From: a virus
Lineage: Duplodnaviria; Caudoviricetes
Strand: one strand, 5' to 3'
Length of the DNA: 57,561 bases
Virus record (IMG/VR): IMGVR_UViG_3300005095_000010
Span: 1-57,561 of that record
The notes below the pieces were generated by a model. The model was not told the origin of the DNA. It worked only from the letters and a program-made list of their open reading frames with translations, and did no database searches. Positions 4,474 through 53,607 of this stretch are shown here, in pieces. Both the position numbers and the translations under genes were made by a program. Positions within the stretch are counted from its first letter, which is position 1. Each line of letters begins with the position of its first letter.

Positions 4474-4550
4474 GCCCATAAGTTTTTCTTATTTCACGCT
4501 GTACAGGGGCTTTGCGGGTGGGTGGTCAAGACCATCAGTATAGTTTCCCT
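4474..4550 (-). repeat. 77-bp dispersed element, copy A
   Basis: Reverse complement is identical to 53531-53607. Confidence 0.95.
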
Positions 4551-4934
4551 CTACTTAGCTTTTTTAATCATAAGTTTTACACCCTTTCTAATATTTCTTA
4601 GTGTCCTCCTATCAGCTTCGGTCTCATAAAATTCTTTTAATAGTGGTGGGTTATATTCCTTAGCCAAACGACCTAAGTCTGCAAAATCACAATCACGTAC
4701 TTTTGTTTCATACAATTCTGCTAAATAGATATAATCTTTAGCGGTGAACCCATCTGTTTCAATGCTTGTGTAAGCTTTCCCTTTAAATTCATACCACTCA
4801 GTGTTGAGCTCCCTGTCGAAATAATGCCCATCTTTTCCAAAAATTGGTTTAACTTCTTTAAACACAGTGGTATCATCAAACCCACCATCCTTATAATAAC
4901 TTTTTGGTATAGAAAACCTCTTAAATCTACTCAT
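4551..4934 (-). CDS. hypothetical protein
   Basis: 127-aa ORF with AGGAGG upstream. Confidence 0.7.
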   Translation of the reverse strand: MSRFKRFSIPKSYYKDGGFDDTTVFKEVKPIFGKDGHYFDRELNTEWYEFKGKAYTSIETDGFTAKDYIYLAELYETKVRDCDFADLGRLAKEYNPPLLKEFYETEADRRTLRNIRKGVKLMIKKAK

Positions 4935-5064
4935 TTTCTTTGACCTCCTTGAAAATTATACCCTGTAACTTTACAGAATACCCTCACAGTTTAACAAAAC
5001 CACCCCAAAAATCCATTTTCTACCCCTCACCCATACTCAGGCATAGGTAAGGTGTAGAAGTGGT

Positions 5065-5310
5065 TTATTTTGCGTGTTTTTTGTAAGCCTCTCTAATTCT
5101 TCTTAATCTTGTCTTGCTAAGACCTTGCATTTCTGACAATTCTTTTAAGAGACTATCAAGAATTTGATAAGAATCTTGTCCAACATTATCAATATTTTTG
5201 GAGAGAGCTTTAAATTGCTCCCAAGCTTCGGCATGTTTGGCTTCATCTTGTGTGTAATAAGCCTTACCATTCACAACATATCTCACCTCTTTTTTAATCA
5301 TCACTGCCAC
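5065..5310 (-). CDS. hypothetical protein
   Basis: 81-aa ORF overlapping the upstream gene. Confidence 0.65.
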   Translation of the reverse strand: MAVMIKKEVRYVVNGKAYYTQDEAKHAEAWEQFKALSKNIDNVGQDSYQILDSLLKELSEMQGLSKTRLRRIREAYKKHAK

Positions 5311-5521
5311 CTATTTCCTCATAAATATCAAAAGCATAGCAATACTCCCATCGGTCTCTATTATTTGTATCAGTTAAAACTGTACCTGACTCGTCAAATC
5401 CTGTAACTTCTACAATAGTACCAATATCAAATGTGGCAGTACCACTCAACAATTTAAATCTTTTACCAATATCTTTTTCCGTAAGATTGTCTATATCCTC
5501 TTCATGCCAAATTTTACACAT
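5294..5521 (-). CDS. hypothetical protein
   Basis: 75-aa ORF with AAGGAG RBS. Confidence 0.7.
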   Translation of the reverse strand: MCKIWHEEDIDNLTEKDIGKRFKLLSGTATFDIGTIVEVTGFDESGTVLTDTNNRDRWEYCYAFDIYEEIGGSDD

Positions 5522-5548
5522 TTTTACTCCTTAAAATTTTACTCTCTA

Positions 5549-5624
5549 AGGGAAACTATACTGATGGTCTTGACCACCCCCTCGCAAATGCCCGCCACAG
5601 CGGCAAATAAGTTTTTCTTATAGC
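5549..5624 (+). repeat. 77-bp dispersed element, copy B (diverged 3' half)
   Basis: AGGGAAACTATACTGATGGTCTTGACCACCC core is identical to the other copies. Confidence 0.9.
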
Positions 5625-5720
5625 AATTTTTAGCTATTTTTGTATCATTTTCGGGGCTGTTTCCTCTAAGGTGTTACATTAAACCCTCGCAGGTATATTT
5701 TTGAAATATGGATAGTCAGA

Positions 5721-6038
5721 TTACTCCGACTTTACCCCATACTTCTTGTCAATTTCTGCACCGATTTCTTCGAGAGTTTTATAAACCCATTTTGGAAATG
5801 TATCTCCATCACCAGTCACTTGCTCAGAAACCCAACCCATAAATGTTTTATAGATACTTGGTAGTTCCTCTTCACTTGATTTTGTATGGAATGGTACTAA
5901 TGCAATCAGTGATGATAACATGCTCCCCTGCTCCATAGTCAATGAGCCTGTGGCTACATTTTTTGCAAGCACCTTTGATGAGATTTCCGCCACTTCTTTA
6001 ACTACCTTATCCATTTTTTCATTACTTACTTTACTCAT
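5721..6038 (-). CDS. hypothetical protein
   Basis: 105-aa ORF, translationally coupled. Confidence 0.7.
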   Translation of the reverse strand: MSKVSNEKMDKVVKEVAEISSKVLAKNVATGSLTMEQGSMLSSLIALVPFHTKSSEEELPSIYKTFMGWVSEQVTGDGDTFPKWVYKTLEEIGAEIDKKYGVKSE

Positions 6039-6217
6039 TTTCTTTCCTTATATTCTCTTTTCATATTATCCAGCATTTCTGCACTCATATACTCAATCTC
6101 CACCCCACAAACAGAGGCTACTTTATAAGCCCCTGTCCGATTAATGGTTATTACCTTTTTAGTTTGTGGGCAAGCCAGCCAATAGCGGCTAGTGTCAGCA
6201 TTTTTTATCACTCTCAT
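6035..6217 (-). CDS. hypothetical protein
   Basis: 60-aa ORF, coupled overlaps. Confidence 0.6.
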   Translation of the reverse strand: MRVIKNADTSRYWLACPQTKKVITINRTGAYKVASVCGVEIEYMSAEMLDNMKREYKERK

Positions 6218-6797
6218 TGTAATCCTCCAATGTAATTAGTTGGGGGCAGTCAAAACTGAACCGTTGTTTTTTGATACTTGCAGAACATTGCCCTGATTCT
6301 TTATCTCTGTGGAAAATAGCTACAGTATCAGCCCCCTCAAATAATGATGTAGAGCCCTCAAGGGTATTATCAGCTTTTGTATGGTGTACCAAGATGATTG
6401 TAAGTCCTGATTCACGTGCAAGTTTTGTAAGCTCTGTCATAAGCTCATAAGCGTGTTCATCATCATTGATATCAACCTTACTATTTGCACCAAAAGCTTT
6501 TAGGGTATCCACAAATACCACATCATTATGGTCAGCATACTTAGAAATACCTATAAGTCCATTCAGGCTCACACCCTCATAGCTTGGTATACCCATAACG
6601 CTTTCATCACTGTTTATGTAGACAACATTATACCCATCACGTTTGAGTTTCTTATATAACCCCTCCAAATATACCGATTTCCCAACACCACTGGCACCTG
6701 CGAAAATGTTAACACCGCCATGTGCAAAGCACTGTAATCCTTCAAGTGGTTTTAACTCCTCTGCCTTTACTACGTTAAGCTGTTTTGTATCAAGCAT
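6195..6797 (-). CDS. RecA/DnaB-like P-loop ATPase (AAA_25-like)
   Basis: Walker A GASGVGKS, Walker B VVFVD, ILVHH motif, KKQR arginine finger. Confidence 0.75.
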   Translation of the reverse strand: MLDTKQLNVVKAEELKPLEGLQCFAHGGVNIFAGASGVGKSVYLEGLYKKLKRDGYNVVYINSDESVMGIPSYEGVSLNGLIGISKYADHNDVVFVDTLKAFGANSKVDINDDEHAYELMTELTKLARESGLTIILVHHTKADNTLEGSTSLFEGADTVAIFHRDKESGQCSASIKKQRFSFDCPQLITLEDYNESDKKC

Positions 6798-7092
6798 GTG
6801 TGCCTCCTGATTCTGTTGCGTGTTCTGCTACCTCTTCTACCAACTCCTCACCCATAGCTTCCCCAGCTTCGTCCCAAGCTTCATACAACAAAGCTTTCAA
6901 AGCTTCGATATATAGTGCCATCTTTGAATTATCAACCATATAGGTCTCAAATGGGTGGGGGTGCGAGGTGTAATAGTGCCATACCCACATAACAATAGCC
7001 GTGACTCCACCAAATAGGAGTACCTTAAACCCCACCACTCTCACGGCTTTATAAGCCCTTACAACCTTCTCTTCAATTCTCATCTCTCTCAT
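6790..7092 (-). CDS. putative membrane protein
   Basis: Hydrophobic segment VLLFGGVTAIVMWVW and acidic tail. Confidence 0.65.
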   Translation of the reverse strand: MREMRIEEKVVRAYKAVRVVGFKVLLFGGVTAIVMWVWHYYTSHPHPFETYMVDNSKMALYIEALKALLYEAWDEAGEAMGEELVEEVAEHATESGGTHA

Positions 7093-7100
7093 TTTTACTC

Positions 7101-7202
7101 CTAATTATACAATGAAGCAAGATATAAAATTCCACAAAACACCACAAAATCCACCGCCCAGACAAATGCACGCTCTTTAGTGCTGATTGGATGTCTTTTC
7201 AT
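7101..7202 (-). CDS. small membrane peptide (33 aa, not in track)
   Basis: AAGGAG RBS; MKRHPISTKERAFVWAVDFVVFCGILYLASLYN. Confidence 0.55.
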   Translation of the reverse strand: MKRHPISTKERAFVWAVDFVVFCGILYLASLYN

Positions 7203-7362
7203 GTTGTACTCCTTGCTTTTGTTTACGTCTCACTACCCGAATATTTGAAAATTTAGGACGATAACCTCTAACGTACTTACGTTTGATTACAATCCCACCA
7301 CTGATTGTTACCATAACTAAAGAGTGTGCAATCAACTCTTCCAACAATGCTGATTCAATCAT
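7177..7362 (-). CDS. small protein with hydrophobic N-terminus and basic C-terminus
   Basis: 61-aa ORF with AGGAG RBS. Confidence 0.55.
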   Translation of the reverse strand: MIESALLEELIAHSLVMVTISGGIVIKRKYVRGYRPKFSNIRVVRRKQKQGVQHEKTSNQH

Positions 7363-7448
7363 TCTACTTCTCCTGCTATGATAATGTACATCATTGCAAT
7401 CATAAAGACCACAAATGCCACGTCTTCAACAATACTTGGTTCTACCAT
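7359..7448 (-). CDS. small membrane peptide (29 aa, not in track)
   Basis: AAGGAG RBS; MVEPSIVEDVAFVVFMIAMMYIIIAGEVE. Confidence 0.55.
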   Translation of the reverse strand: MVEPSIVEDVAFVVFMIAMMYIIIAGEVE

Positions 7449-7450
7449 AA

Positions 7451-7675
7451 TCACTCCTTAATGTTATCCTTTACCCAAGCTTCTACAGCTTCTCTGTGTT
7501 TATGATAATAACCATCAACACTCGTACCTGTATACAGTGCTTCCATAGCCTTGTAAGTTACAGGAATACCTTTCCATTTGTCCGGGTTAGACATATACAC
7601 CACCTCATTCGTAACCTTGTTACAGATTACAAAGTCGAACTCGAAAGGGAATATTACTAAATCTTCAATGTTCAT
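7451..7675 (-). CDS. hypothetical protein
   Basis: AAGGA RBS directly after a palindrome copy. Confidence 0.7.
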   Translation of the reverse strand: MNIEDLVIFPFEFDFVICNKVTNEVVYMSNPDKWKGIPVTYKAMEALYTGTSVDGYYHKHREAVEAWVKDNIKE

Positions 7676-7708
7676 GTTAAATCCTTAAAAGTTATAGGCT
7701 GTAACTTA

Positions 7709-7957
7709 TCAGGCTATGATAAGTACTTCCTCAATACAGTGCTTAGGCACTTCATAGAATCTACCTACACCATACTCCCAAGTATAGGTATCTTCAATCT
7801 CATCATACACTACATTAATCTCCCTACACTCACCCAAGTATTGGTCAAGGGATTTGTCTGGAAACCCAGTAGGTTTGATAATAACTGTCATGTATTCTAC
7901 AGAAAACTCTGGCGGAGTTTTAAGCTTCTCCCAGAATTTTCTAATCTTTGTCAACAT
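7709..7957 (-). CDS. hypothetical protein
   Basis: 82-aa ORF. Confidence 0.65.
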   Translation of the reverse strand: MLTKIRKFWEKLKTPPEFSVEYMTVIIKPTGFPDKSLDQYLGECREINVVYDEIEDTYTWEYGVGRFYEVPKHCIEEVLIIA

Positions 7958-8327
7958 CTCCCATACCTCCTAATGTGGACAACAGTTCCGAGATATCTGG
8001 CTGTTTTGGCAGTTCCATAGATTGTTGCAAACGCTTTTTAAAGTCTCCAACAGCTTTTTCGGGGATGGTATTTACCAAAGTTTCTGCCATACCAGATACC
8101 GTGGTACACCCATACAAAGCTTCCATAGTTGCAATGTACATTATCTGAGCATTTCTTGGAAGGCTTTGAAATACCATTACAATCTCTACTGCGAGCTCTT
8201 GATTTTTGTCCAGCTTGTTATTTTTGAAGGCTGTTAGTAATTCACCCATAGTTTCATAGCCGAAAGCCTCCGAGATTTTTTCCGTGCCTTTTTTAAGACT
8301 TAGTTTTTTCTCAGTTGTTTGTTTCAT
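7941..8327 (-). CDS. hypothetical protein, paralog of 3972-4364
   Basis: Similar N-terminal half and same upstream promoter module. Confidence 0.75.
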   Translation of the reverse strand: MKQTTEKKLSLKKGTEKISEAFGYETMGELLTAFKNNKLDKNQELAVEIVMVFQSLPRNAQIMYIATMEALYGCTTVSGMAETLVNTIPEKAVGDFKKRLQQSMELPKQPDISELLSTLGGMGDVDKD

Positions 8328-8451
8328 TGTTAATCCTTTAAAGTTAATTTAGGCTGAGACCAAATTCTCATTAAGAAGTGGTGAGCTTCGCCAAAGTTAT
8401 AGGCTGTAACTTTTCAAATTTGTTACAGCACCTCAATTAAATTGTAACCGT

Positions 8452-8480
8452 ATTATAACATCTTTACAAGTATTTGTCAA
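8452..8480 (-). promoter_or_regulatory. sigma70-type promoter
   Basis: TTGACA-N17-TATAAT, extended -10. Confidence 0.85.
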
Positions 8481-8494
8481 GCTTATAATACTAA

Positions 8495-8692
8495 TTAAGT
8501 TAACTTAAATCCACAGATTTTCTCTGCTTCTTTAGTTGCATTGTAGGATGTTGTCAAATCAACTATCCCATTTACATAATTCCAGTGTGTTTTTGTTGCT
8601 TTTTGGATAGCTTCTTCACACTGGGGTGTCAGATTTTCGGTGGACTGCACAGAAATTGTGCAGAAAACTGCAAATAATAATACCTTACTCAT
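8495..8692 (-). CDS. small putative secreted protein
   Basis: Signal-peptide-like N-terminus and two downstream Cys. Confidence 0.55.
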   Translation of the reverse strand: MSKVLLFAVFCTISVQSTENLTPQCEEAIQKATKTHWNYVNGIVDLTTSYNATKEAEKICGFKLT

Positions 8693-9284
8693 TACCGTCC
8701 TCCAAAATATTTTTTACACTTGTGTAGTGCAGTTGTTTTAGTGGTTCTGGGTAGTACCCATTAACGTCTATAACACTCCAATCAAAGAACAGGTCATTAA
8801 GTACCAACTTACCATTATAAGCCATCAGGTTTCTTGGAGAAACCTCCATACACAAATCATACGGGTTAATGTAATTGGATAGGTGCATTACAATTCCTAC
8901 TAATTCGTCACGAAGCCCTTTTAACTTGAACCCCTCACACACTTCCAAAATGTCGTGGTATCCTTTTATGGATGAATAGTACCACCCAGTACTACCAGTA
9001 GGTTTCCTAAAAGCTTTTAACAAATATTGGTAATATTTGTAGTATAATGTAGTCAACTGCCGTTTAGGGGCTGTCAATTTTTCATACTTAGGTGATAGGA
9101 GTACAGAAACTTCTGGGTGTGACTCAATACTACCTCTAAATTCATAGGTAGGTGTCATCCTACCCCCATCATATTCAGATAAAGCGTTCTTTACTGGGCA
9201 GATAGTAGCAATAACAGCATTATTACCATCAATTCCCCAAACTTTAGTGAAGGCTCCTCTTCCAATCACTTCTATTTTGCTCAT
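8685..9284 (-). CDS. protein-kinase-like fold protein
   Basis: IGRGAF glycine-rich loop, EVSPRN catalytic-loop-like segment, LVLNDLF DFG-like motif. Confidence 0.55.
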   Translation of the reverse strand: MSKIEVIGRGAFTKVWGIDGNNAVIATICPVKNALSEYDGGRMTPTYEFRGSIESHPEVSVLLSPKYEKLTAPKRQLTTLYYKYYQYLLKAFRKPTGSTGWYYSSIKGYHDILEVCEGFKLKGLRDELVGIVMHLSNYINPYDLCMEVSPRNLMAYNGKLVLNDLFFDWSVIDVNGYYPEPLKQLHYTSVKNILEDGNE

Positions 9285-9382
9285 TTTTTACCCCTTCTAT
9301 TTAACTGATGTGGTTCATACCACCATATTGCTCCAACGGTGAAGCTTATTACTATTGTCTGCTCCATTACTTCATGTGCCAT
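9281..9382 (-). CDS. small hypothetical peptide (33 aa, not in track)
   Basis: AAGGAG RBS after a palindrome copy; ATGA overlap with the next gene. Confidence 0.45.
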   Translation of the reverse strand: MAHEVMEQTIVISFTVGAIWWYEPHQLNRRGKK

Positions 9383-9411
9383 ATCAACTCCTTAAAAGTT
9401 ACAGCCTGTAA

Positions 9412-9960
9412 CTATGCAATATCTTTGAAGAACGAGTCTACACTCTTCATAGTTACTTGTTTATTCACACCATGTACCGCTTTCTCACCATAGATTCTGC
9501 TAAGTTTTGGTAGCTCCTCCTCTCTATCAAACATAGTGTTCCATGTTCGGTGGTTGATGCCGTTAAGAGCCTGCTTTACTGTTACAGTGGCATGGTTAAA
9601 AATTACTCCCATGCTTTCTTGAATTTCATCAAGGTCTTTGAATGTGTTTACAGAATCCCAGTATTTTCCATCAAATTCCAATACTGCGTGGTAGCAGTTT
9701 GCAGGCTTACCACTATTGAGTTTTTCCAGCTCGGCATCATCCATATCTTTGGCAAATAGCCAAAGCATTTTTACTTTGCCTTTAAACTCTGGATAAGTTT
9801 TTTCTACCCACCGTTTATGCGTCAGTGCAATGATGGCACACCCTCCTTGGTTAGGACAATCTACAACACTGTCCACCTCATCCAACTTCTTTCTAAACTC
9901 TCTGTGGACTTTATTAAGCATACTCATTCTTGTTACCCCCTTAATTATTTTCTTTAACAT
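9412..9960 (-). CDS. putative Cys-His-Asp (papain/transglutaminase-like) protein
   Basis: GGCAIIA ... HAVLEFDGKYWDS. Confidence 0.5.
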   Translation of the reverse strand: MLKKIIKGVTRMSMLNKVHREFRKKLDEVDSVVDCPNQGGCAIIALTHKRWVEKTYPEFKGKVKMLWLFAKDMDDAELEKLNSGKPANCYHAVLEFDGKYWDSVNTFKDLDEIQESMGVIFNHATVTVKQALNGINHRTWNTMFDREEELPKLSRIYGEKAVHGVNKQVTMKSVDSFFKDIA

Positions 9961-10044
9961 ATTTTTCTACCTTAAAAGTTATAGTCTGTAACTTTTCAGG
10001 GACTGCCCGATTTTGAACAATTCCTGAAAAGTAAGTTTCAATTT

Positions 10045-10332
10045 TTATGTACCATAGTAATAGTATGTGTGTGTATTGCAGTCATTCTCCCATACCCGAA
10101 TTTCCACAATATCATCAGCCATCCACCCAATTTCTGTATAAGTGTCGGCGTTACTGTCCCACTCATATACCATACTTTCAACTTCATCTTCCAGTAAATG
10201 CACTGGGGTATAAATGTCCTCTTCAAGTGTCATAGGGCACTCATTAGTCACTCCTGACACCATCTCAGCTACCTCTCCACATCCTGAGAGGCATATGCCA
10301 GCCATGATTGCCGCTACTATAAAATTCTTCAT
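10045..10332 (-). CDS. lipoprotein
   Basis: Signal peptide with lipobox LSGC; acidic mature part. Confidence 0.7.
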   Translation of the reverse strand: MKNFIVAAIMAGICLSGCGEVAEMVSGVTNECPMTLEEDIYTPVHLLEDEVESMVYEWDSNADTYTEIGWMADDIVEIRVWENDCNTHTYYYYGT

Positions 10333-10435
10333 GTTAAATCCTTAATCGTTAATTTAGTTTGTTAAAAGTTACAACCTGTAACTTCTCAAATTTTGTTAGG
10401 GAGTGTTAATCTCCTACCACTATTTTATCAGAATT

Positions 10436-10780
10436 TTACCAGTTTCCGTCAAGCCCTACCTCTGCTTGAGAGGCATCATTATAGACCGCATACACTTTTA
10501 ACTGAAACTCCGCACAAATGGTAAACTCTTTCCCGAACCCATCGGGCTCTTGTACGACGTACCAGTACTGTCGTACACCTGTTTGGGCACTTTTTTTACT
10601 ATCATGGATTGTGTTAACTAAATCCAATTTATTAACAGCCTCTCTGTAAGCTATTGAAAAATCCTGCCCGTGAATGAACAGATTCTGTGAAACATCTGTC
10701 TCAAACTTAGTACTCTCCAACACTCTCTTTACGGTTCCAGTCAGTTCAAATCTGAACCCTGCAAGTTTTTTGTTACTCAT
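10436..10780 (-). CDS. hypothetical protein
   Basis: 114-aa ORF with AAGGA RBS. Confidence 0.7.
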   Translation of the reverse strand: MSNKKLAGFRFELTGTVKRVLESTKFETDVSQNLFIHGQDFSIAYREAVNKLDLVNTIHDSKKSAQTGVRQYWYVVQEPDGFGKEFTICAEFQLKVYAVYNDASQAEVGLDGNW

Positions 10781-11240
10781 TTGCCAATCCTTAATCGTTA
10801 ATTTAGTCGGAAGCTAAAAAGTTACAACCTATAACTTTTTAGTTAGCTACCATGTATATACACATTTTTAAAAAGATATGTATATAAATAGTACCTATAA
10901 CTACCAATTTCCTACACCAATAGTATAACATAAATTATACTAAGTTACAAGCACCCACCAAACACCTCGCAACCCAAATTTTGTGAATTTCCAAGCAACC
11001 CCAAAATTTGGGGATTACCAGAATTTTACCAGATTGCTAAAAACAGTTTTACTGTTTATTAACAGCGTGGGCGTGGGCATTGGTAGGGTTTTGCCGTATT
11101 TTACCCAAATTTGTTAGTTTGCTAAAAAGTTACTGGCTATAACTTTTCTTTGGGTTAGTTTGTGAATATTTTTGTGAACATACGTTCACTTTTGTACAGG
11201 AACTTATCAGTTGTTGATAAGTTCCTGTCGGGTTTGTGTG

Positions 11241-11306
11241 AGATGCTTTAAAGCATCTGTAAAGCTTTTTGAAGATGCTTTAAAGCATCTGTAAAGCTTT
11301 TTGAAG
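11241..11306. repeat. 32-bp tandem duplication containing 18-bp palindrome AGATGCTTTAAAGCATCT
   Basis: Units 11241-11272 and 11273-11304 are identical. Confidence 0.9.
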
Positions 11307-11924
11307 GTAAGCGTTAACGGTTGCTAACGTGTTCTTTTTTTCTTTGCTTGCATGGTAATCTTGTGCGATATCTTCCAACTCCGCCACAAGGTCGAAAAAC
11401 TGATTCTCCAACTCTTCGACGGATTTGGTCGCTAACTCTGAAGCATGGTTAATAACTTCATCTTTAATCGCTTGCACCTCTTTTTTAGTGTCAACCTTTA
11501 CCGCTTCGGTTTTTGTCTCCGCCTTACCGCTTACCGTTTTAACCTTTGCAGAGTGGTTTTGCTTCTCTTTACCCTCTTTTCTAATCTCTTTGAGTTTTGC
11601 CATACTTGCTTTATCACCTAAAGCTATAATAGCGTCCACTACTTTAAAGTCCACTTGGTAAGCTTGTGACTTACCGTTAATGGACTTCTTATCATACATA
11701 CGCCCGACTACCATAGCAACATGCTTAAACGTCCCTATGCCAGTCTCTTTTGCTTCACTGTTGAGTTTTCCGTTAATAGTAGCTAACTCATTGTAAGATA
11801 CTTTACCACTCTTTACAAGTTTTGCCAGTGCCATAAGGTACTGTGCGTTTGATGCCTCCGCACTTTTAACTGTTTTGATGTACTCGTTTGTTAGTGCCTT
11901 ACCAGTCTTGAATGAAGTTTTCAT
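11280..11924 (-). CDS. Lys/Ala-rich early protein
   Basis: 214-aa ORF with its own consensus promoter and RBS. Confidence 0.8.
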   Translation of the reverse strand: MKTSFKTGKALTNEYIKTVKSAEASNAQYLMALAKLVKSGKVSYNELATINGKLNSEAKETGIGTFKHVAMVVGRMYDKKSINGKSQAYQVDFKVVDAIIALGDKASMAKLKEIRKEGKEKQNHSAKVKTVSGKAETKTEAVKVDTKKEVQAIKDEVINHASELATKSVEELENQFFDLVAELEDIAQDYHASKEKKNTLATVNAYLQKALQML

Positions 11925-11972
11925 TTGTTTATCCTTTAAAATGTTAATTTGCCCTTATTGGGCTGTAATCGT

Positions 11973-12002
11973 ATTATAAGACAATTTAGCTCAAATTGTC
12001 AA
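11973..12002 (-). promoter_or_regulatory. sigma70-type promoter
   Basis: TTGACA-N18-TATAAT; palindrome copy at 12010 lies just upstream of the -35. Confidence 0.75.
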
Positions 12003-12029
12003 CCTCTTAAAAGTTACAACCTATAACTT

Positions 12030-12320
12030 TTAATTTACCTTTACATCCATACCTAGTTCTAAGTTCATGGAGATTATCTTACCATCTTCAGTGGCAAAGT
12101 CTCCCTCAAAGTATATATCCCCACCGATAGTATAGAATGAATAGCTCTGGTAGCCATTTGTGTTACTAACACCACGATTAATTCTTACTTCACCAATACC
12201 GTCAATAGTAATAATTGAGTACTCATCGCCCGGCAATTTGCCACTGAAAATTTTGAGCAACTCGGCTCCTATCGTATTATGTAGTGTATTGTATTGGTTA
12301 ATCATCTGTGCCAATCTCAT
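12030..12320 (-). CDS. hypothetical protein (first gene of leftward early block)
   Basis: 96-aa ORF; promoter TTGATT-N18-TATAAT at 12370-12399. Confidence 0.7.
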   Translation of the reverse strand: MRLAQMINQYNTLHNTIGAELLKIFSGKLPGDEYSIITIDGIGEVRINRGVSNTNGYQSYSFYTIGGDIYFEGDFATEDGKIISMNLELGMDVKVN

Positions 12321-12459
12321 GTTAATCCTTTAAAAGTTATTTGCAACCGCTTAACAGTTGCTTGGCAGTATTATAACACCTTTTAACTTTTAAAATCAAT
12401 AGTTTTTAGAAAAATTTTTTAAAAAAGTTTTTCAGTAAAAAGTTACAACCTATAACTTT

Positions 12460-12880
12460 TGAAATTAGTTTTGCTTATATCTTACACGTGTATATATATA
12501 ATGTAAGTAAACAGCTCGACGGGTACGGGCAGGGTACTACACAGGTAATATAAGTTATTATTATGTGTTTATCAGTTGCTTTGCAGTTGCTTTGCAGTTG
12601 TTGTTAGGTTGGGGCAAGGGTGGGACTGGCGGGCTGGTGGGGCTTTGCTTGGGTTTGGTAAGGGGCGGTTAAGTTTCTTTTAAGGTTTTGTGGGGCGGTG
12701 GGGGCGTAAAGAGAGCCCAACAGTTACTTTAAGGTGCTACAAAGTAACTGCAAAACCACTGCAAAAACCCTCATACAAAACCTAATAAACCACTGTCAAA
12801 ATAAATGAACAAGTGTTCATATTAAGGTGCTACAAAGTAACTGCCAAAACCTAATAAACCACTGTCCAAAACCAGACACG
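12460..12880. other. repeat-rich non-coding divergence region (candidate genome terminus, packaging site or origin)
   Basis: G-rich to C-rich switch near 12716, CAGTTRCTTT repeats in both orientations, 22-bp direct repeats. Confidence 0.5.
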
Positions 12881-12885
12881 ATATA
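12879..12885 (+). promoter_or_regulatory. CGATATA putative late-promoter motif (first of 11-12 copies)
   Basis: Also at 14721, 19107, 21429, 27119, 28877, 32768, 33923, 40693, 50591 (+) and 52279-52285, 53474-53480 (-). All + copies are 33-37 nt before an ATG. Confidence 0.8.
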
Positions 12886-12911
12886 TAGGTAAATAAAACA
12901 AAAGGATACTT

Positions 12912-14129
12912 ATGACTCAAACAGTACATGACTTTTTGGAATTGCTAAAGTCTGGGCAGTACATGGTAGTTGATGCCAGCATCAAGACACGACCACAGAT
13001 AACCTCAGCAGTTTTGCCAATGTGTTTGGAAGAGATGCAAAAAGGCTTGGTACAATATACCGAGATTTTGCCAGAAAATTATAACTTAGAGAATGGAGAT
13101 ATTCTCAACAAATTCAGAAACAGTGAGATTCTGGGCAGACCTTATAATATACATGTAGATGGCACTGACATCTTTTTGGTAGATTATGATAGACATAATA
13201 TACTCACTTTTAATTTTGATTGGGAGCTGACAGCCAAGCACGAATTGTACCCACAAGACACATCACTTAGAAACCCCAACTGTGTTGTTGTCAACTCTGA
13301 TAAAATATTTGTGGGCACTAACTACTACAAAATGTGTGCCATTGATAAAGTGACTGGGGACGTGTTGTGGCAATTTGGTACATATAACAGTAGAGGTCGT
13401 CCAGAAGACGGTAAGATTGGTAGAATTTATGACATGGCTATAGCACCTAACGGTAACTTGCTAATTGCTACATACGACGGGGCAGGAGATGCCAATAAGT
13501 ATTACGGTACTGTGGATGAATTTACAGTTGATGGCACATTCGTTAAAAACCATCTTCAATATAACGTATCAGGACTTGGTGTAGACCATGAAGTTAGATA
13601 TCCAAGAGCTTTAAAAGTTTATGGGGATATGGTATATGTTGGTACAGCTAATAGAATTGATGTGTTTCAGTATGTTAATGATGAGTTAGAGTACCGTACA
13701 TATATTGCAAAACCAACTTCTGAAGCTGTGCAAGACCTGTCACTGACAGACTTTCTAATTTCTGACGACATCTTGTATGTTGTTGCAAGTTCTTTGAAGA
13801 AAGTGGTAGCATTTAACTTAGCTACAAAAGAAGTGGAGTATTCTGTTGGACACTACAGTTACGAGAATTACTCCGATGCAGTACATGAGGGGAATGGGTT
13901 CAATGACCCTAGAAGTATCTGTAAAGTAGGTGAAGATGTTGTGGTAGTTGACTCAGCTAACTATAATGTAACTAAGGTATTCCCGAAAGATTACATGGAA
14001 GTTACCTACCAGATGCCTACAAATGCAGAAGTTATTTACAGCTCTTTGGAAGTTGAAAATAACATTGCCAAGACACCGATAGGTATCGAGCCTCCAATAC
14101 TACATTTAGTTTTTAAAACTACAGTGTAG
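12912..14129 (+). CDS. beta-propeller (NHL/PQQ-like repeat) protein
   Basis: Repeated P..[IL].V....[IL][FY]V blades (LRNPNCVVV, VRYPRALKV, FNDPRSICK) and AIDKVTGDVLWQF. Confidence 0.65.
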   Translation: MTQTVHDFLELLKSGQYMVVDASIKTRPQITSAVLPMCLEEMQKGLVQYTEILPENYNLENGDILNKFRNSEILGRPYNIHVDGTDIFLVDYDRHNILTFNFDWELTAKHELYPQDTSLRNPNCVVVNSDKIFVGTNYYKMCAIDKVTGDVLWQFGTYNSRGRPEDGKIGRIYDMAIAPNGNLLIATYDGAGDANKYYGTVDEFTVDGTFVKNHLQYNVSGLGVDHEVRYPRALKVYGDMVYVGTANRIDVFQYVNDELEYRTYIAKPTSEAVQDLSLTDFLISDDILYVVASSLKKVVAFNLATKEVEYSVGHYSYENYSDAVHEGNGFNDPRSICKVGEDVVVVDSANYNVTKVFPKDYMEVTYQMPTNAEVIYSSLEVENNIAKTPIGIEPPILHLVFKTTV

Positions 14130-14358
14130 TTTCTAGCCAGTTGCCTAACAAGAATATGGCAGCTGGTATAAAACTCCCTGCTGTGTAAGCTGCTATAATG
14201 TCATCATTGAATGCTTCCCCATACTTAAACTTCCTCCATAAAGCCACTACAACCCCTAGTATAAACATAGATTGAATACCAATAAATGCTGTTTGTGTTA
14301 AGAGTGTTATAATTGAGGCTAAGCCCACTCCAAAGTAAAATCTATCTCTGATTGTCAT
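14119..14358 (-). CDS. membrane protein
   Basis: Two to three hydrophobic segments. Confidence 0.65.
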   Translation of the reverse strand: MTIRDRFYFGVGLASIITLLTQTAFIGIQSMFILGVVVALWRKFKYGEAFNDDIIAAYTAGSFIPAAIFLLGNWLETTL

Positions 14359-14638
14359 TATCTCTCCTTGTAAACAGTTGTTTTAAGTCATAACTCAATA
14401 CGCCCACTACTTTTTCTCTAATCCATTGAAGTGATTGTGGATTGTTGTCGAGATAACCAGTGATAGTTATAATATTTACAATTGGAATAGCAGCCTGTAG
14501 TATTATAAACAAAGAGAATAGTAAGTCCCCAACTGTAAACTCACAAACATCGTTATATTCCTCATAAAACACAAATACCCATAGTACAATAGGCACTACA
14601 TAAAAAATGGCAATAAAAATTGTCACAAATATTTCCAT
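14342..14638 (-). CDS. membrane protein
   Basis: Two hydrophobic helices; AAGGA RBS; TG-extended TATAAT at 14667-14672. Confidence 0.7.
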   Translation of the reverse strand: MEIFVTIFIAIFYVVPIVLWVFVFYEEYNDVCEFTVGDLLFSLFIILQAAIPIVNIITITGYLDNNPQSLQWIREKVVGVLSYDLKQLFTRRDNDNQR

Positions 14639-14757
14639 ACAAATCCTTTAAGTTAATTTAAGTTGTATTATAACAACTTAATACTTAATTATTGCTGAAG
14701 TCAGTAGTATTTTATAAGTACGATATAATAATGTAATTTAACACAAAGGATACTTAA

Positions 14758-15273
14758 ATGGGTATGTTTAAAGATATTGGGGCTTCTCCAAGAAACCTTG
14801 GATTGGCAACAATGAAAGAGACTATTAAGGATAATGTTAAAACCATTACAATAAATCTTGAGGATTTTAATGAGGATATTATCAATCCCGGCACGTTTTA
14901 CTGTAGAGTTAAACTCCCTGTAATGGAAATTGACACCCTTGAGGTAAAATTTGACAGTGAGCTTAAAGCTATACTACAAAGTTTAGATACAGAAGTTTAC
15001 GCTGTAAGTTTCGAGGGCGAGAGTACAGAGTATGAAGCTTTTGACCCACTAGAGATTAGAGTATTTGGTAGCAACATCAAAAACACTAACGGTAATATCA
15101 AACTTGTTTTTGGTAATGATGTAGCCACTATAGGGGTTTATGAATTTGTACAAATTCAAATTCCAAGATTTGGCAGTTTTGTTGGTGATGCTGTAACCAT
15201 AACCAGTTTTAATAGTGTTGGTACCCCAGAAGAAATTCTTCCATTTGTACCACAAAGTGGTGGAGGGGAATAA
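14758..15273 (+). CDS. hypothetical protein (late motif upstream)
   Basis: 171-aa ORF; CGATATA at 14721. Confidence 0.75.
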   Translation: MGMFKDIGASPRNLGLATMKETIKDNVKTITINLEDFNEDIINPGTFYCRVKLPVMEIDTLEVKFDSELKAILQSLDTEVYAVSFEGESTEYEAFDPLEIRVFGSNIKNTNGNIKLVFGNDVATIGVYEFVQIQIPRFGSFVGDAVTITSFNSVGTPEEILPFVPQSGGGE

Positions 15274-15309
15274 TCCCTCCTAATTATAAAAAATAAATAA
15301 AGGATAAAT

Positions 15310-15909
15310 ATGGCACCTACATTTGATATACCAGTAAAGGTTTTGAAATTTTCACCTAGCCCGCTAGATGTGGTTAAAGTACAAGAAGCTTTGGCAGATG
15401 CTTATAAAGTTGTTTATCTTACACCAGATATGGTGGAGGAAGCGGATGGAGAGTGGAGATTTGAAGCACACATGGATATGCTAGCTACAGATGGTTTATA
15501 TGTAAAACTGTCCAAAGACTTTGCAGATGCTGTAAATAATGAGGGTTTGGCTGGCTCGGGGATTGTTAAAGTTAAACTCTACCATACTACAGAGAATGAG
15601 AAAGCCTTTGCAGCTACCCCATTTAAAGCTACTATTGATATCTCAGAAGTAAGAGACAGATTCGTGGAGCTAGAGATAGCAAGCACTTATGAAGATTCTG
15701 GCTTTATTGGACAAATTGAAGTTGCAGGAAGTAATATTACTGCTAATATCGCTTATGCTGATGGATTCATTGGTTATGGTGAGTGCCCAAGAAATGGTAG
15801 ATACATGGACAGACCTGTAGTTACTAAGACACGATTTATGTCACCAGAAGATTACTATGATATTACCTCGTGGGGTGGCGACAGAGATGAAGAAAAAGGT
15901 GGAATATAA
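15310..15909 (+). CDS. hypothetical protein
   Basis: 199-aa ORF with AAGGA RBS; hairpin GGGGC-TAA-GCCCC after the stop. Confidence 0.75.
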   Translation: MAPTFDIPVKVLKFSPSPLDVVKVQEALADAYKVVYLTPDMVEEADGEWRFEAHMDMLATDGLYVKLSKDFADAVNNEGLAGSGIVKVKLYHTTENEKAFAATPFKATIDISEVRDRFVELEIASTYEDSGFIGQIEVAGSNITANIAYADGFIGYGECPRNGRYMDRPVVTKTRFMSPEDYYDITSWGGDRDEEKGGI

Positions 15910-15966
15910 GGGGCTAAGCCCCTTCACCGCAATAAAACATGTTAACATTTTAAAGATTCTGGTCAA

Positions 15967-17143: not shown

Positions 17144-17144
17144 C

Positions 17145-18970: not shown

Positions 18971-18997
18971 GTAAACTCCTTTAAATTTTATGGACGT

Positions 18998-19141: not shown

Positions 19142-19396
19142 ATGGTAAATCATATATTTCCAAAGACAATAAATCTAGTGCATGTAAAAAATGGAGAGCT
19201 TGTTTTTGTATGCTCCTGTGGTAGAGTAGACTCAACTAGATTAAAAGAGTTCAACAAAAAAACCAGATGTCAAATTTGTACAAAAGCTAATGCTAAATTA
19301 ATAGCTGAAAATAAGGTCGTAAATAAATTCCAAATTTATGAACTTTTTGACACTATGAAGCAAAATGGGTTATATAATTTTGTTAATAAAATTTAG
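19142..19396 (+). CDS. zinc-ribbon-like protein
   Basis: CSC...CQIC; CGATATA upstream. Confidence 0.6.
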   Translation: MVNHIFPKTINLVHVKNGELVFVCSCGRVDSTRLKEFNKKTRCQICTKANAKLIAENKVVNKFQIYELFDTMKQNGLYNFVNKI

Positions 19397-19403: not shown

Positions 19404-19480
19404 AGGGAAACTATACTGATGGTCTTGACCACCCCCTCTCAAACGCCCGCCACAGCGTGAAATAAGAAAAACTTATGGGC
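19404..19480 (+). repeat. 77-bp dispersed element, copy C
   Basis: Near-identical to copies A and D; also shares upstream AAATTTAGCTCTAAA with D. Confidence 0.95.
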
Positions 19481-19532
19481 TAATTTGGGTAAAAATTACC
19501 CATTTTTGTACTTTAAAAGGAGAAAAAATTTA

Positions 19533-20078
19533 ATGAAAACGGATAGTTTGGAAAAGGTGGCAAAGGCTGCTGACTTAGAGATACAAGAGATGCTTTCAAA
19601 TTTGCCTCAACAGGATGTTGAATTTGTTGATGAAGAACTTGAACATGACCCAGTGATACATAGCCCAGTAGTTAGTGTACAACCTGCAACACCTATGACA
19701 GTTATGGAAACTAATATATGTGAGTTATATTCTACTGGTATGTCAACTAAAGGTATAGCTGAGGAGCTCGGAATTGAGCCATATACCGTTAGAAATGTTT
19801 TAGCCAAGCCCCACATCAAAGATTTTGTTTCAGAGCTTATAAACGCTCAATACACAACTTCTATAGAGGGTAGACTAAGAGTAATTAATAAAATAATTGA
19901 CGCTAAGTTGGAAAAAATTGAGGAAGAGTATAACGGAGACTTCTCAAAAGCTACTAAAAAGGATGTTGTAGATTTGTTGATGATAGCTGATGGTATGCTT
20001 AAAGAACGTCAAAAGAAAGAGCTTGGCACTTCCGACAATGTGTATTTAAGTATTGTTAATCAAATAACTGGAGAGTAG
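19533..20078 (+). CDS. terminase small subunit (putative)
   Basis: HTH STKGIAEELGIEPYTVRNVL; immediately before terL; start moved to ATG with AAGGAG RBS. Confidence 0.7.
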   Translation: MKTDSLEKVAKAADLEIQEMLSNLPQQDVEFVDEELEHDPVIHSPVVSVQPATPMTVMETNICELYSTGMSTKGIAEELGIEPYTVRNVLAKPHIKDFVSELINAQYTTSIEGRLRVINKIIDAKLEKIEEEYNGDFSKATKKDVVDLLMIADGMLKERQKKELGTSDNVYLSIVNQITGE

Positions 20079-20079
20079 G

Positions 20080-51124: not shown

Positions 51125-51131
51125 CCAACAG

Positions 51132-51147
51132 TGAGCCTTCGGGCTCA
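51132..51147. terminator. hairpin between convergent transcription units
   Basis: TGAGCC-TTCG-GGCTCA. Confidence 0.65.
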
Positions 51148-51178
51148 TAAATACGTTAACAGTTAACAAATACAACTG

Positions 51179-51634
51179 CTACAATATAGTAGCAATCGCA
51201 TAAGCATCAACTAAATCATCAAGCTTAGTTGCATAAATTTTAAATTGAGTTAAGATATCATCAGGGGTGGCACCAGACATCTCATCTTTTTTTGCTCTAC
51301 CATTACCAGTATACTGCTTTTTGATAGTAGGTGGTGGTAAAAGTTTTACACTATAATCAAGTCTTCGTAAACTATAATATATTGCTCCTAAAAGCATTGA
51401 TAGTTTATCCCTCATACCTTTTGATTGAAAAGAAGCCGCCTCTATACCTACTGTGCAATTCGATGGACTGTATTTTACAACAAAATCCATAAGTTTATTT
51501 ACTATCTCTACAGACCTATCATGTATATCTTTATGCTTTGGAGATAACAGAACAAAATCAACAAGGGTTTTATCCTCATCCAATACAACTATAGCAGTAT
51601 TTGTTGTACTACTATCAATACCTATAAAAAACAT
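51179..51634 (-). CDS. RuvC-like Holliday junction resolvase
   Basis: IGIDSS, IE, PPTIKKQYTGNGRAKK, DDLVDAYAI. Confidence 0.85.
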   Translation of the reverse strand: MFFIGIDSSTTNTAIVVLDEDKTLVDFVLLSPKHKDIHDRSVEIVNKLMDFVVKYSPSNCTVGIEAASFQSKGMRDKLSMLLGAIYYSLRRLDYSVKLLPPPTIKKQYTGNGRAKKDEMSGATPDDILTQFKIYATKLDDLVDAYAIATIL

Positions 51635-52257
51635 TATAGGTACCTTCTAAGTTTCTGCATTAACTCATCTATAACTGGTACGAGCTCTTGTGGCTGCTCA
51701 TTCATCCATACAGTTTTAAATGTATCAATTTCTTTAGCCAGCTCATACATTTCAGAAAACTTATTATATATATTTTGTATATTTTCTTTGCCCTCAACTA
51801 GCACAGGTGCTCCATTAAAAGCTGGCACAATATGTAGTATACCGCCCAAAACTACAGTGTCAAGTACTTTTGATAATTCATCTACCACATCTACATAATA
51901 CAAAGTAGGGTTGCTCCATAACTTATAAGTTGTACCATCAAAAACTTGTTGTGATTCTTTCAATAACCACTCAAATTTTGTAAAGTCACTTTTGTCTTTT
52001 ACCATTCTGTATGTTGGAAAACCACCCAAAATTTTATTAGTTATGACTTCTTCACCGTTTTCATCATAAACTACACCGTCCTTATAAGTAGCATTATCTA
52101 AATCTATAAGCTCTGGGAACTCAACAGGCAGTATTACTTCTCTATCACTTAAAACTACCGAGTCAATTATTACCGAGCCATACTCATCTCTTTTATAATA
52201 CTCCGCACGATAATTTAAAATATCCCCCTGAGTGTTTATAGTTGCTATGTATACCAT
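51634..52257 (-). CDS. hypothetical protein
   Basis: AAGGA RBS; CGATATA upstream on the minus strand. Confidence 0.7.
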   Translation of the reverse strand: MVYIATINTQGDILNYRAEYYKRDEYGSVIIDSVVLSDREVILPVEFPELIDLDNATYKDGVVYDENGEEVITNKILGGFPTYRMVKDKSDFTKFEWLLKESQQVFDGTTYKLWSNPTLYYVDVVDELSKVLDTVVLGGILHIVPAFNGAPVLVEGKENIQNIYNKFSEMYELAKEIDTFKTVWMNEQPQELVPVIDELMQKLRRYL

Positions 52258-52289
52258 CAATCAATCCTTTTTATTTTATATATCGTACT

Positions 52290-53414
52290 CTAAGCGGCAA
52301 CAGGAGGTGAGTTACATTTTGCAACACCAAGCCCAATTTTGGATACAACAACATCTTTCAAGACCTTTAAAGGCTTTGTATCCAATTCCACAGTTGTTAT
52401 AGGTTTTTGTGTAACAATATACAAAGCCTTAACAAGCTCTATAATTTTGTAACGATGTTTTTGAAAAGTATTTTTAGAGATTCCGAATACTCTTCCACCT
52501 TCTCTAGCACTCATTGAACGGAGTTTTTTGATACTAATTAGCCCCACAGATACAACCTTGCGGAGTAATTCATTCTTTTTAAGTTCCGCCTGTCTCTTTG
52601 CCAATTTTTGGTTAAACTCTACAGTTTTATAGTTTGCAGTTTTGTTTACCCACCTAGTTCGCATAAAATGTGTTATAGAGTTACAAATTGTTGATAATTC
52701 CTGCTTACTTACAGGAGAACTCATCTGTCCATTAGCCATAGTAAGTGCCGACAATACTAGCCCACGTAGGTTTTTAACATTACCGTACTTGTATGCTACA
52801 TGCCTACCATAATCGAATAAAGCTTTATTACGATTCCCCTCTGAAATCTTTGTAAAATCTGGAGCTTTATAACGAATTGTTTTCTTTTTCATAACATACT
52901 TATCACTCATACTATCAAGTTCTGGTAAAATTACAAAAAATTGTTGTAGTGTTGCTAAATCACTATGATAGTACTCTGTGTCATGTTTTAGTGGGTTACG
53001 GAACATTCTACCAGAGTATTTTGGCATGGCATGTTTATCACTTCCAAGTAATTCAATCAAAACTGAAGCTATTTTTTGATAGAGTGCTGTTTGTCTCATG
53101 TTACTTGTGACAATAGCTGCCTGTAATACCCAATGTATATGGAGACCTTTGGTGGTCTTTACAATAAAATTTGGTTTTGGAAGACCAGCGTTTTTTATAA
53201 TATCAAGCACTTTTGGGATGTCTTGGTGGGAATCTATATCAACTGATATAGCAGGTATATGAAATTTGTTACCAAAACGTACAAATTTATATTTTATAGC
53301 TTCTTTGAAGGGTTTGAAATGAGACTTTGCAGTCTTTTTGTTAGAGCATTGGATAGAAATATCAGCTGTTCTTGTATCAAGTAGATGTGGCATCAATGCT
53401 CTTAACTCTTTCAT
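52290..53414 (-). CDS. ColE2-type replication initiator (AEP Replicase + PriCT-1 + HTH)
   Basis: VDID, PNFIV.TTKGLHIHW, RNP, GNRNKALFDYGR (PriCT), C-terminal HTH SAREGGRVFGISKNT. Confidence 0.75.
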   Translation of the reverse strand: MKELRALMPHLLDTRTADISIQCSNKKTAKSHFKPFKEAIKYKFVRFGNKFHIPAISVDIDSHQDIPKVLDIIKNAGLPKPNFIVKTTKGLHIHWVLQAAIVTSNMRQTALYQKIASVLIELLGSDKHAMPKYSGRMFRNPLKHDTEYYHSDLATLQQFFVILPELDSMSDKYVMKKKTIRYKAPDFTKISEGNRNKALFDYGRHVAYKYGNVKNLRGLVLSALTMANGQMSSPVSKQELSTICNSITHFMRTRWVNKTANYKTVEFNQKLAKRQAELKKNELLRKVVSVGLISIKKLRSMSAREGGRVFGISKNTFQKHRYKIIELVKALYIVTQKPITTVELDTKPLKVLKDVVVSKIGLGVAKCNSPPVAA

Positions 53415-53530
53415 GCAAGTCTCCTTTTAAATTTTGTGTATTATATAACAATAACCCTTAATAATCTCTTAAATATATCGCAATTTGCCTAAGTTAAAGT
53501 CTTAAATTTTGCTTTAAATTTAGCTCTAAA

Positions 53531-53607
53531 AGGGAAACTATACTGATGGTCTTGACCACCCACCCGCAAAGCCCCTGTACAGCGTGAAATAAGAAAAACT
53601 TATGGGC
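53531..53607 (+). repeat. 77-bp dispersed element, copy D
   Basis: Identical to copy A; lies between the divergent rep and exonuclease genes. Confidence 0.95.

Follow-up and report, generated by a model that had tools for sequence, protein, structure and literature searches.

The window analysed here, IMG/VR record IMGVR_UViG_3300005095_000010, is a stretch of 57,561 nucleotides from a virus of the Caudoviricetes, and comprises the whole of that record, which is estimated to be ∼50% complete. It carries four dispersed copies (A to D) of a non-coding element, 77–80 nt long, one of them beside rep (52290..53414, minus strand), a gene for a 374-aa protein with an archaeo-eukaryotic primase (AEP) domain, a PriCT-1 domain and a C-terminal helix-turn-helix (HTH). 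All four copies are intergenic. Copy D (53531..53609, plus strand) occupies the divergent region between rep and a 5′-3′ exonuclease gene (53686..54600, plus strand; PF02739), toward which it points, and the rep operon also holds a RuvC-like Holliday junction resolvase gene (51179..51634, minus strand). The distance from D to the rep start codon is 117 bp, close to the ∼115 bp given in a preliminary description of this DNA, which had placed D simply upstream of rep; to this it must be added that rep is on the minus strand, with D on the other strand, pointing away from it. A perfect sigma-70 promoter (53633..53661, plus strand; TTGACA-17-TATAAT with TG ahead) begins 23 bp past the end of D and drives toward the exonuclease gene. 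Copy A (4472..4550, minus strand) starts one base past the stop codon (4551-4553) of ORF (open reading frame) 4551-4934, and its end is separated by 3 bp from the -35 box of another perfect sigma-70 promoter (4439..4468, minus strand; TTGACA-18-TATAAT with TG ahead), which precedes 3972-4418 (minus strand). Copy B (5549..5624, plus strand) lies between 5721-6038 and 5294-5521, both on the minus strand and both antisense to it, so that A and B form an inverted pair around a 998-bp cassette (4551..5548, minus strand) of three small ORFs of 127, 81 and 75 aa that belong to no family. Copy C (19404..19483, plus strand) is inside the late transcription unit, between an ORF for an 84-aa CxxC protein (19142..19396, plus strand), which stops 7 nt ahead of C and has a late-type CGATATA motif upstream (19107-19113), and terS (19533..20078, plus strand). 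The terS ORF was called from TTG 19485, and its likely start is ATG 19533, which follows AAAGGAG; a terminator-like hairpin (19486-19502) stands between C and this likely start.

A 31-mer, AGGGAAACTATACTGATGGTCTTGACCACCC, occurred exactly four times in the window, with 0 mismatches, at 4520-4550 (minus strand) and at 5549-5579, 19404-19434 and 53531-53561 (plus strand), and none of 100 dinucleotide shuffles contained any match. Between A and D (4472-4550 and 53531-53609) identity was 100% over 79 nt, between A and C 89% across 80 nt, and between A and B 86% across 63 nt, while C and D had an extra ∼17 nt in common upstream of the element. The preliminary description had reported four dispersed intergenic copies with A equal to D, an invariant first 31 bp and a copy C that precedes terS, and on each of these points the exact matches and the ORF map agree with it. 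A profile made from all known copies detected no fifth or degenerate copy in the window, where the next match had an E value of 0.22. Three parts can be distinguished within the element: a 20-nt core, ACTGATGGTCTTGACCACCC (in D at 53542..53561, plus strand; in the others at 5560-5579 and 19415-19434, plus strand, and 4520-4539, minus strand); a sub-module, Y, GCTGTACAGGGGCTTTGC (in D at 53566..53583, minus strand; in the others at 4498-4515, plus strand, and 5585-5601 and 19440-19456, minus strand); and a hairpin, ATAAG-N5-CTTAT (in D at 53589..53603, plus strand; in the others at 4478-4492, 5607-5621 and 19462-19476). The ATAAG and CTTAT arms were present in all four copies, around a spacer of AAAAA except in B, where it reads TTTTT.

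Relatives were found via terL in two IMG/VR records, G001 and G002. G001 is collinear with the window from 539 to 46305 at ∼70% nucleotide identity and carries the element at the A and C positions but lacks it at B; within the place of the 4551-5548 cassette its ORFs are largely unrelated to those of the window. G002 spans 17237-29467 of the window and has the C copy. A metagenome scan returned 16 stretches, eight of them true copies (three being those of the G001 and G002 records) and eight chance matches in GC-rich coding DNA. Among the additional records, L028 is the orthologue of 51.6-55.5 kb and carries its copy between rep and the exonuclease gene, as the orthologue of D; L032 and L038 have one copy each, ahead of a consensus promoter, and in L032 element and promoter join genes that are 5 kb apart in the window; and L033, which equals L025 over the part compared, has its copy beside a Peptidase_M78 gene, antisense to the neighbouring genes. 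The record-name prefixes make it probable that L028 goes with G001 and that L032 and L033 go with G002. Altogether the set comprised 11 copies, four in the window and seven distinct ones in relatives, with the C-position copy ahead of terS in three lineages. A search of IMG/VR with an exact 26-mer gave 0 matches, and a degenerate pattern gave nine stretches, three of them true and from G001 and G002. Cultured phages yielded no DNA match to the element and no match to Rep. A host-derived origin of the element was rejected after one scan of bacterial and archaeal species genomes, in which a single chance match was found, in a Shewanella contig. Contigs from a DNA run coded X1, compared with 1-20000, were fragmentary and came from relatives only; they contained no inversion joint at A or B, such contigs showing presence and not absence. 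One X1 contig joins 5492 to 5627, which skips 5493-5626 and would delete B, and was not counted because its shorter side is 24 letters.

When the 11 copies were compared, only ACTGATGGTCTTGA(C/G)C(A/G)CCC and one to three upstream heptamers GNAAAC(A) were common to all. The 20-nt core was identical in all seven window and G001-type copies, against ∼70% identity of the genomes and with flanks that differ, and it deviated at 2–3 positions in the G002-type copies. It is the sole part kept in every lineage, and the pattern of substitutions indicates that selection acts on a long asymmetric core. The preliminary description had stressed the palindrome TGGTC-TT-GACCA, which does lie within the invariant 31-mer of the window, but the G002-type copies and the distant lineage G007, described below, no longer have the dyad intact; dyad symmetry is therefore not the conserved feature, and an asymmetric core whose dyad has been lost is more in keeping with a monomeric initiator than with a dimeric repressor. 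It had likewise noted that the ATAAG and CTTAT arms are kept while the spacer changes from AAAAA to TTTTT, which holds in the window, but the hairpin is specific to it, being found in none of the seven copies in relatives.

Copies from one genome resemble each other in their downstream halves, and copies from different genomes do not, which indicates concerted evolution. Sub-module Y follows an 18-nt consensus, GCTGT[AC/GG]NGGG(G)C[A/T]TTTG, and comes in two types: window A, window D and all G001-type copies have alpha, while window B, window C and all G002-type copies have beta. All four window copies have Y inverted relative to the core, whereas in the seven copies of relatives it is direct throughout, an inversion that argues for a site in double-stranded DNA; in either arrangement the palindromic CTGTAC lies exactly 17 bp past TTGACC. 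Six of the 11 copies (window A and D and four of the seven in relatives) precede a perfect sigma-70 early promoter, with distances of 71, 74, 75, 75, 81 and 91 bp from core to TTGACA. The promoter is outside the conserved unit: B, C, L033 and the second G007 copy have none after them, and five of the seven perfect early promoters of the window have no element. When the two G007 copies are added to the set, which makes 13, ten run with local transcription.

The product of rep was assigned from several comparisons. It scored 29.4 bits against the Pfam family Replicase (cut-off 26) and 21.3 against PriCT_1 (cut-off 21.1). The protein collection contained 14 Rep homologues, with 36–53% identity when the window's own entry is left aside, and the AEP motifs DxD (D59, D61), sxH (H92, H94) and hD (D126) were invariant in 14 sequences. 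A tblastn search with Rep matched replication initiation proteins on 316 plasmids, 150 of the matches covering at least 80% of the query; among the 15 matches listed, identity was 21–26%, and these include small Aeromonas and Citrobacter plasmids and pPT23A-family Pseudomonas plasmids, groups that are described as ColE2-related in the excerpted text of two sources (PMC4655240; PMC5304414). An AlphaFold model of Rep, with a mean pLDDT (predicted local distance difference test) of 75.9, matched AEP primase-polymerases in a fold search (6zp9_A, E 7e-7), as well as RepB′ (3h20, E 6e-3; 3h25 also matched), and gave a weak match, at rank 31, to the DNA-binding domain of ColE2-P9 Rep bound to its origin (3vw4_A, E 0.16, probability 0.95, template modelling score 0.46). 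A distant relative of the ColE2-family plasmid initiators is a fair description of Rep, and the ColE2-type primase-Rep that the preliminary description had placed beside the element is upheld in this form.

An alignment of the Rep homologues led to five more viral records, with a Rep 34–38% identical to that of the window. In one of them, G007 (Rep 37% identical, neighbourhood rearranged), the core recurs as a 26-nt inverted pair, TTAAACAAACTGATGGTTTTGGACAC, which flanks a gene for a 168-aa protein immediately upstream of rep. The two copies lie ∼200 bp and ∼1.1 kb from the rep start, and the nearer one is directed away from rep, as D is. A profile search found no other copy in the 69 kb of G007, though terL and head genes are present there, and a search for the G007-type pattern returned G007 itself only. 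The core was absent from the other four records of this group. In three of these four (L039, L041 and L042), large lineage-specific dyad repeats stand 50–110 bp upstream of rep, in the form of inverted repeats with 25–33-nt arms that differ by phage (L039, 2353-2420; L041, 2301-2383; L042, 2370-2434). Whether the element accompanies rep in relatives had been raised as a check in the preliminary description, and a copy upstream of rep is now seen in three lineages, distant G007 among them. Linkage of the core to the 5′ side of rep persists across 63% divergence of the protein and a rearranged neighbourhood. The gene that follows rep in the window (208 aa) had no family and no likeness to the G007 neighbour, and its Atlas leads were sub-threshold only.

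Identities at the RNA level were also considered. At gathering thresholds, Rfam matched only four tRNAs in the window, and at E≤5 there were 0 matches in the eight loci that hold element copies, on which ground a known RNA family was rejected. (The tRNAs, Ser-GCT, Asn-GTT, Met-CAT and Ser-TGA, form a cluster at 55810-56186.) No stable fold was seen in six single-sequence folds of both strands (z -1.25 to +1.18), and RNAalifold, applied to the relatives and to the window copies, gave no conserved or covarying consensus structure. The inversion of Y and the flipped loop of B turn the RNA into its complement, which makes an RNA-level function of Y and of the loop unlikely. For copies D, L028 and the first of G007, which sit in divergent promoter regions, no sense transcript would be expected; in the case of D, neither a gene nor a promoter upstream could transcribe it in sense. 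No intrinsic terminator was found in the sense direction; the scan flagged only the antisense strand of the core (GGTGGTCAAGACCATC with a weak T-rich tail), a hairpin that is broken in the G002-type copies and in G007. Several other identities were set aside by eye: a hammerhead ribozyme (GAAAC ... CUGAUG is there, but stems I and III have no room), a T-box (GGGUGGU-like, no Rfam support), a sigma-54 promoter (spacing wrong and different between the alpha and beta types of Y), a LexA-like AGTAC-N3-GTACT (in two G001-type copies only), an integron attC (core sites not conserved), a DnaA box (six of nine positions agree) and a leader peptide MVLTT (the conservation is at the nucleotide and not the codon level).

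The regulatory map of the window contains three clear classes of signal, and the 77–80-nt element is outside all of them. Seven perfect sigma-70 promoters make up the first; they read TTGACA-17/18-TATAAT, with TG ahead of the -10 box in all but one, and lie at 19026, 12002, 8480, 4468 and 103 on the minus strand and at 53633 and 54607 on the plus strand. The second is CGATATA(T/C), with 20 matches, 13 of which are intergenic and lie ∼25–35 nt ahead of start codons: at 12879, 14721, 19107, 21429, 27119, 28877, 32768, 33923, 40693, 45683 and 50591 on the plus strand and at 52285 and 53480 on the minus strand. These positions are before plus-strand structural genes, before rep and before the gene after rep, and the motif is probably the middle/late promoter class of this phage; the copy upstream of rep (53474..53480, minus strand), of the middle/late type that also precedes structural genes, is kept in L028. 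The third is a 23-bp palindrome, AAAAGTTACAGSCTGTAACTTTT, with ∼17 copies in window 1-12460 (e.g., 19-33, 3357-3371, 4387-4401, 9398-9412 and 12442-12456), nearly all in the 5′ untranslated regions of minus-strand early genes and directly upstream of the ribosome-binding site. The late region contained none except one degenerate match at 20778. The palindrome might serve as an operator, be a site for RNase III or form an attenuator hairpin. Base composition did not single out the element, since intergenic regions are 36–38% GC throughout and its flanks are likewise AT-rich, and GC skew tracks the coding strand and is uninformative on origins.

Some further features of the window were observed. 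Three of the perfect early promoters have in common a transcribed leader of ∼90 nt (16-106, 4380-4453 and 8393-8483; 84% identity between 16-106 and 8393-8483), with a hairpin, GCTGTAAC...GTTACAGC, ahead of the ribosome-binding site, an arrangement of promoter and stem-loop that resembles the promoter-early stem-loop cassettes (PeSLs) considered below. The largest non-coding stretch, 12321-12911 (590 bp), contains a promoter-like TATAAT, two copies of the repeat GTTGCTTTGCA, two ∼45-nt direct repeats and a 120-nt G-rich run of the G-quadruplex-type pattern that includes GGGGCTTTGC, a word also present in sub-module Y; it is partly kept in G001 (66% over 322 nt) and is a candidate for an alternative origin or a non-coding RNA locus. 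At 11241-11304 a 32-nt unit, AGATGCTTTAAAGCATCTGTAAAGCTTTTTGA, is exactly duplicated in tandem; the duplication is upstream of ORF 11280-11924 (minus strand) and overlaps its first codons. The minus-strand gene 517-2454 encodes a 645-aa protein that strongly matches PHROG 1735 (unknown function, E 2e-114), has no Pfam or NCBIfam family and is kept in G001.

From the repeat and its conservation, the asymmetry of the core, the absence of RNA features, the linkage to rep and the identity of Rep, we infer that a protein binds the element, that Rep is the binder and that replication starts or stalls upon binding. These three steps do not carry the same weight. That the element is a protein-binding site on double-stranded DNA seems to us probable, if by no means secure. 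That the Rep initiator recognises its copies, D serving as an origin or operator and the others being secondary sites, is a possibility that we put forward tentatively. The element would be a cis-acting double-stranded DNA site read by a sequence-specific phage protein, and the part recognised would be the asymmetric core, (GNAAAC)1-3 ... ACTGATGGT(C/T)TTG(A/G). The candidate reader we would name foremost is the product of the neighbouring rep gene, a ColE2/RepB′-like AEP primase with PriCT-1 and HTH; selection on the core, its linkage to rep, the dyad repeats at the same place in sister lineages and the precedent of phage SPP1 all point to it. Copy D, being proximal to rep, might then serve as the primary origin or as a Rep operator, and A, B and C might be secondary Rep sites, either extra starts co-oriented with transcription or fork barriers or enhancers like SPP1 oriR. 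It is more doubtful whether several dispersed directional sites in a phage of ∼115 kb serve a plasmid-style initiator (class C theta, self-priming) with a master origin beside rep. We regard it as similarly unlikely that the other sites, at the head of early units and of the packaging/late unit, would act as starts or fork arrests wired to the transcription map, and would attach no greater probability to the idea that the sites co-evolve per genome by gene conversion, with internal modules free to flip.

Several findings weigh against Rep as the reader. All genomes compared are fragments (completeness 11–56%) and represent 3–4 independent lineages. The recognition helix of the HTH in the core-less L039-L042 (ISKNTF.K-like) is nearer to that of the window than is the helix of core-bearing G007 (ISKSSAAKY), so that helix similarity is unrelated to the presence of the core and no covariation between Rep and core is seen. 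The position of copies within the transcription map, with six of 11 located 71–91 bp before a perfect early promoter, three before terS and ten of 13 co-oriented with transcription, would be equally expected of a transcription-linked role, a PeSL-like cassette or a regulator site. The element also does not resemble a ColE2-type origin, although the initiator beside it is akin to the ColE2-family Reps. We took the anatomy of the ColE2 origin from the excerpted text of PMC5304414 and from two plasmid records (L048 and L049) that are among the listed matches of Rep. According to that text, ColE2-family origins are at or after the 3′ end of rep (PMC5304414), and both plasmids have a conserved block directly after the rep stop codon, in agreement with this location, whereas the phage copy is 5′ of rep, and the 29 bp after the phage rep stop contain a CGATATA late-type promoter only and no conserved origin-like block. 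Local alignment of the element (A/D, B and C, both strands) to the plasmid origin blocks gave shuffle p values of 0.11–0.70 in all 12 comparisons. The words ATAAG, CTTAT and ACAGCG are common to both, but in another order and on another strand. A ColE2-type origin by sequence likeness was accordingly rejected, and the element fails as a member of that class on position, sequence and copy number.

Explanations tied to transcription would account for the same placement next to promoters. The element could be the upstream part of a boundary cassette like the PeSLs, a composite of stop codon, GC-rich stem-loop or attenuator, AT-rich tract and strong sigma-70 promoter. Such a cassette would insulate early units, and the element, as its conserved linker, would serve as a homologous recombination site for the shuffling of small ORF cassettes. 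Much of the layout agrees with the definition of these elements in the excerpts of PMC2839356 and PMC4122927, including the subclass with the stem-loop upstream of the -35 box: the TTGACA of a consensus promoter follows six of 11 copies at 71–91 bp; A, C and the A-position copy of G001 begin 0–8 nt from an upstream stop codon; every lineage would allow a C-run to pair with a G-run (GCCC...GGGC in the window, where B has two compensatory changes; CCCCA...TGGGG in G001); the three ORFs bracketed by A and B are largely swapped for unrelated ones in G001, as is expected of an ORFan cassette; and at the L032 junction the element with its promoter links genes 5 kb apart in the window. The element thus marks exchange points, as PeSLs do, which may be a consequence of conservation rather than of function. 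The stem-loops are weak (z ∼0), however, and lack the sense-direction U-tract of a terminator; there is no transcription upstream of D to terminate; five of the seven perfect early promoters lack the element, and B, C, L033 and the second G007 copy lack a following promoter. Nor does a boundary cassette account for an asymmetric core of 20–26 nt, kept even in G007 with its 37% identical Rep, or for the linkage to rep, and we consider it unlikely. A slightly less probable proposal is that the element is an operator for a phage regulator other than Rep, such as a small early HTH protein or terS, that would shut down early promoters or turn on the late unit. The genes 16889-17143 and 17668-17952 encode small HTH proteins, an HTH is also found in terS, the element precedes both early promoters and terS, and in a genome with three clear signal classes (seven sigma-70 promoters, 13 CGATATA motifs and ∼17 palindromes) extra regulator sites are plausible. 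Yet the core stands at a variable distance of 71 to 91 bp from the -35 box, a long way upstream for a repressor site; most early promoters have no element, what is conserved is no dyad, and both G007 copies are near rep and not terL.

An element that acts as RNA, whether as a 3′ untranslated region or processing site, a protein-binding leader or a sense small RNA, would explain why ten of 13 copies are co-oriented with local genes, why A and C come directly past a stop codon, and why, in every window copy including B, the A5 hairpin loop is in the sense of the local genes. Against it stand the absence of any Rfam match, stable fold or covarying consensus, the inversion of Y between lineages, and the location of D, L028 and the first G007 copy where no sense transcript is expected, and we judge such a role improbable. 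Most improbable of all is a packaging site (pac-like, for terS) or the site of a site-specific recombinase, the latter of which would make 4551-5548 invertible. The position of C ahead of terS in three lineages would suit the former, and the inverted pairs, A and B 998 bp apart and the pair in G007, would suit the latter, but no recombinase gene was seen in the window, the X1 contigs, which can show presence and not absence, had no inversion joint at A or B, G007 has no copy near its terminase genes, and multiple pac sites beside early promoters are not expected.

ColE2/RepB′-type primase-initiators are normally tied to one tiny plasmid origin. If the elements are targets of Rep, this would be, to our knowledge, the first case of such an initiator serving a large phage via dispersed sites, and the literature searched showed no such case. 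It would also provide a simple in vitro handle on the replication of an uncultured phage, with one protein and a site of 20–26 nt. Even if the role were regulatory, the element would remain an example of concerted evolution within a genome, with an 18-nt module flipped between lineages, and as a mark of gene-cassette exchange points it helps the annotation of a lineage in which most ORFs have no family.

A known system close in layout to the reading of the elements as Rep sites is phage SPP1, which, in the excerpts of PMC6316719 and PMC3485210, has two dispersed initiator sites, oriL and oriR, bound by gp38. In the switch model outlined in part of the first source, the distal site is thought to stall forks and so lead to concatemer synthesis, with a Holliday junction resolvase and a 5′-3′ exonuclease (PMC6316719). 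As excerpted, the SPP1 element is found at or in the initiator gene with a far copy in the late region, amid transcription signals and moron genes, and rep of the window is flanked by RuvC-like and 5′-3′ exonuclease genes, which match the enzymes of the switch model. The two systems differ in that the SPP1 origins consist of direct repeats with an AT-rich unwinding element, at which a non-primase organiser loads a DnaB-type helicase, whereas the initiator of the window is an AEP primase, and the element is a single asymmetric core with one to three GNAAAC repeats, in four copies. As for an iteron array, what is found are the one to three GNAAAC(A) heptamers before the core, and flanks that are AT-rich as in all intergenic regions. 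The PeSLs of T4-like phages, as far as the excerpt of PMC2839356 describes them, are repeats of ∼100 bp from an upstream stop codon, with stem-loops of G/C-runs and a strong sigma-70 promoter, and have their place at the borders of ORFan cassettes that vary among close relatives. The element shares that place, and recalls the rest in its possible G/C-run pairings and in the promoters that follow six of 11 copies; it differs in that the window unit is upstream of the promoter, also occurs without one (B, C, L033 and the second G007 copy) and has a long invariant core linked to rep.

Two plasmid systems offer parallels for the protein. The ssiA and ssiB sites of RSF1010 serve RepB′, a primase with AEP and PriCT-1 domains, and form an oppositely oriented pair (PMC4538821, in excerpt), which recalls the inverted pairs A/B and G007-1/G007-2, and the structures 3h20 and 3h25 of RepB′ match the phage Rep. 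The ssi sites are, however, adjacent single-stranded DNA hairpins in one oriV, whereas here the hairpin is not conserved and the pairs are ∼0.9–1 kb apart. In the class C theta plasmids ColE2 and ColE3 the initiator has the same domain set, AEP, PriCT-1 and HTH (PMC5862659, in excerpt), and the phage element is, like their origin, a short, non-iteron, asymmetric site of the kind that a monomeric Rep could read. Their site, in the excerpted account, is a single one at or just past the 3′ end of rep, with the primer AGA (PMC5304414), whereas the phage element is 5′ of rep and has four copies. The element is explained by no catalogued family; as a type of system, dispersed initiator sites in phages are already known, and sites read by Rep would hence fall within that category and not constitute a new one.

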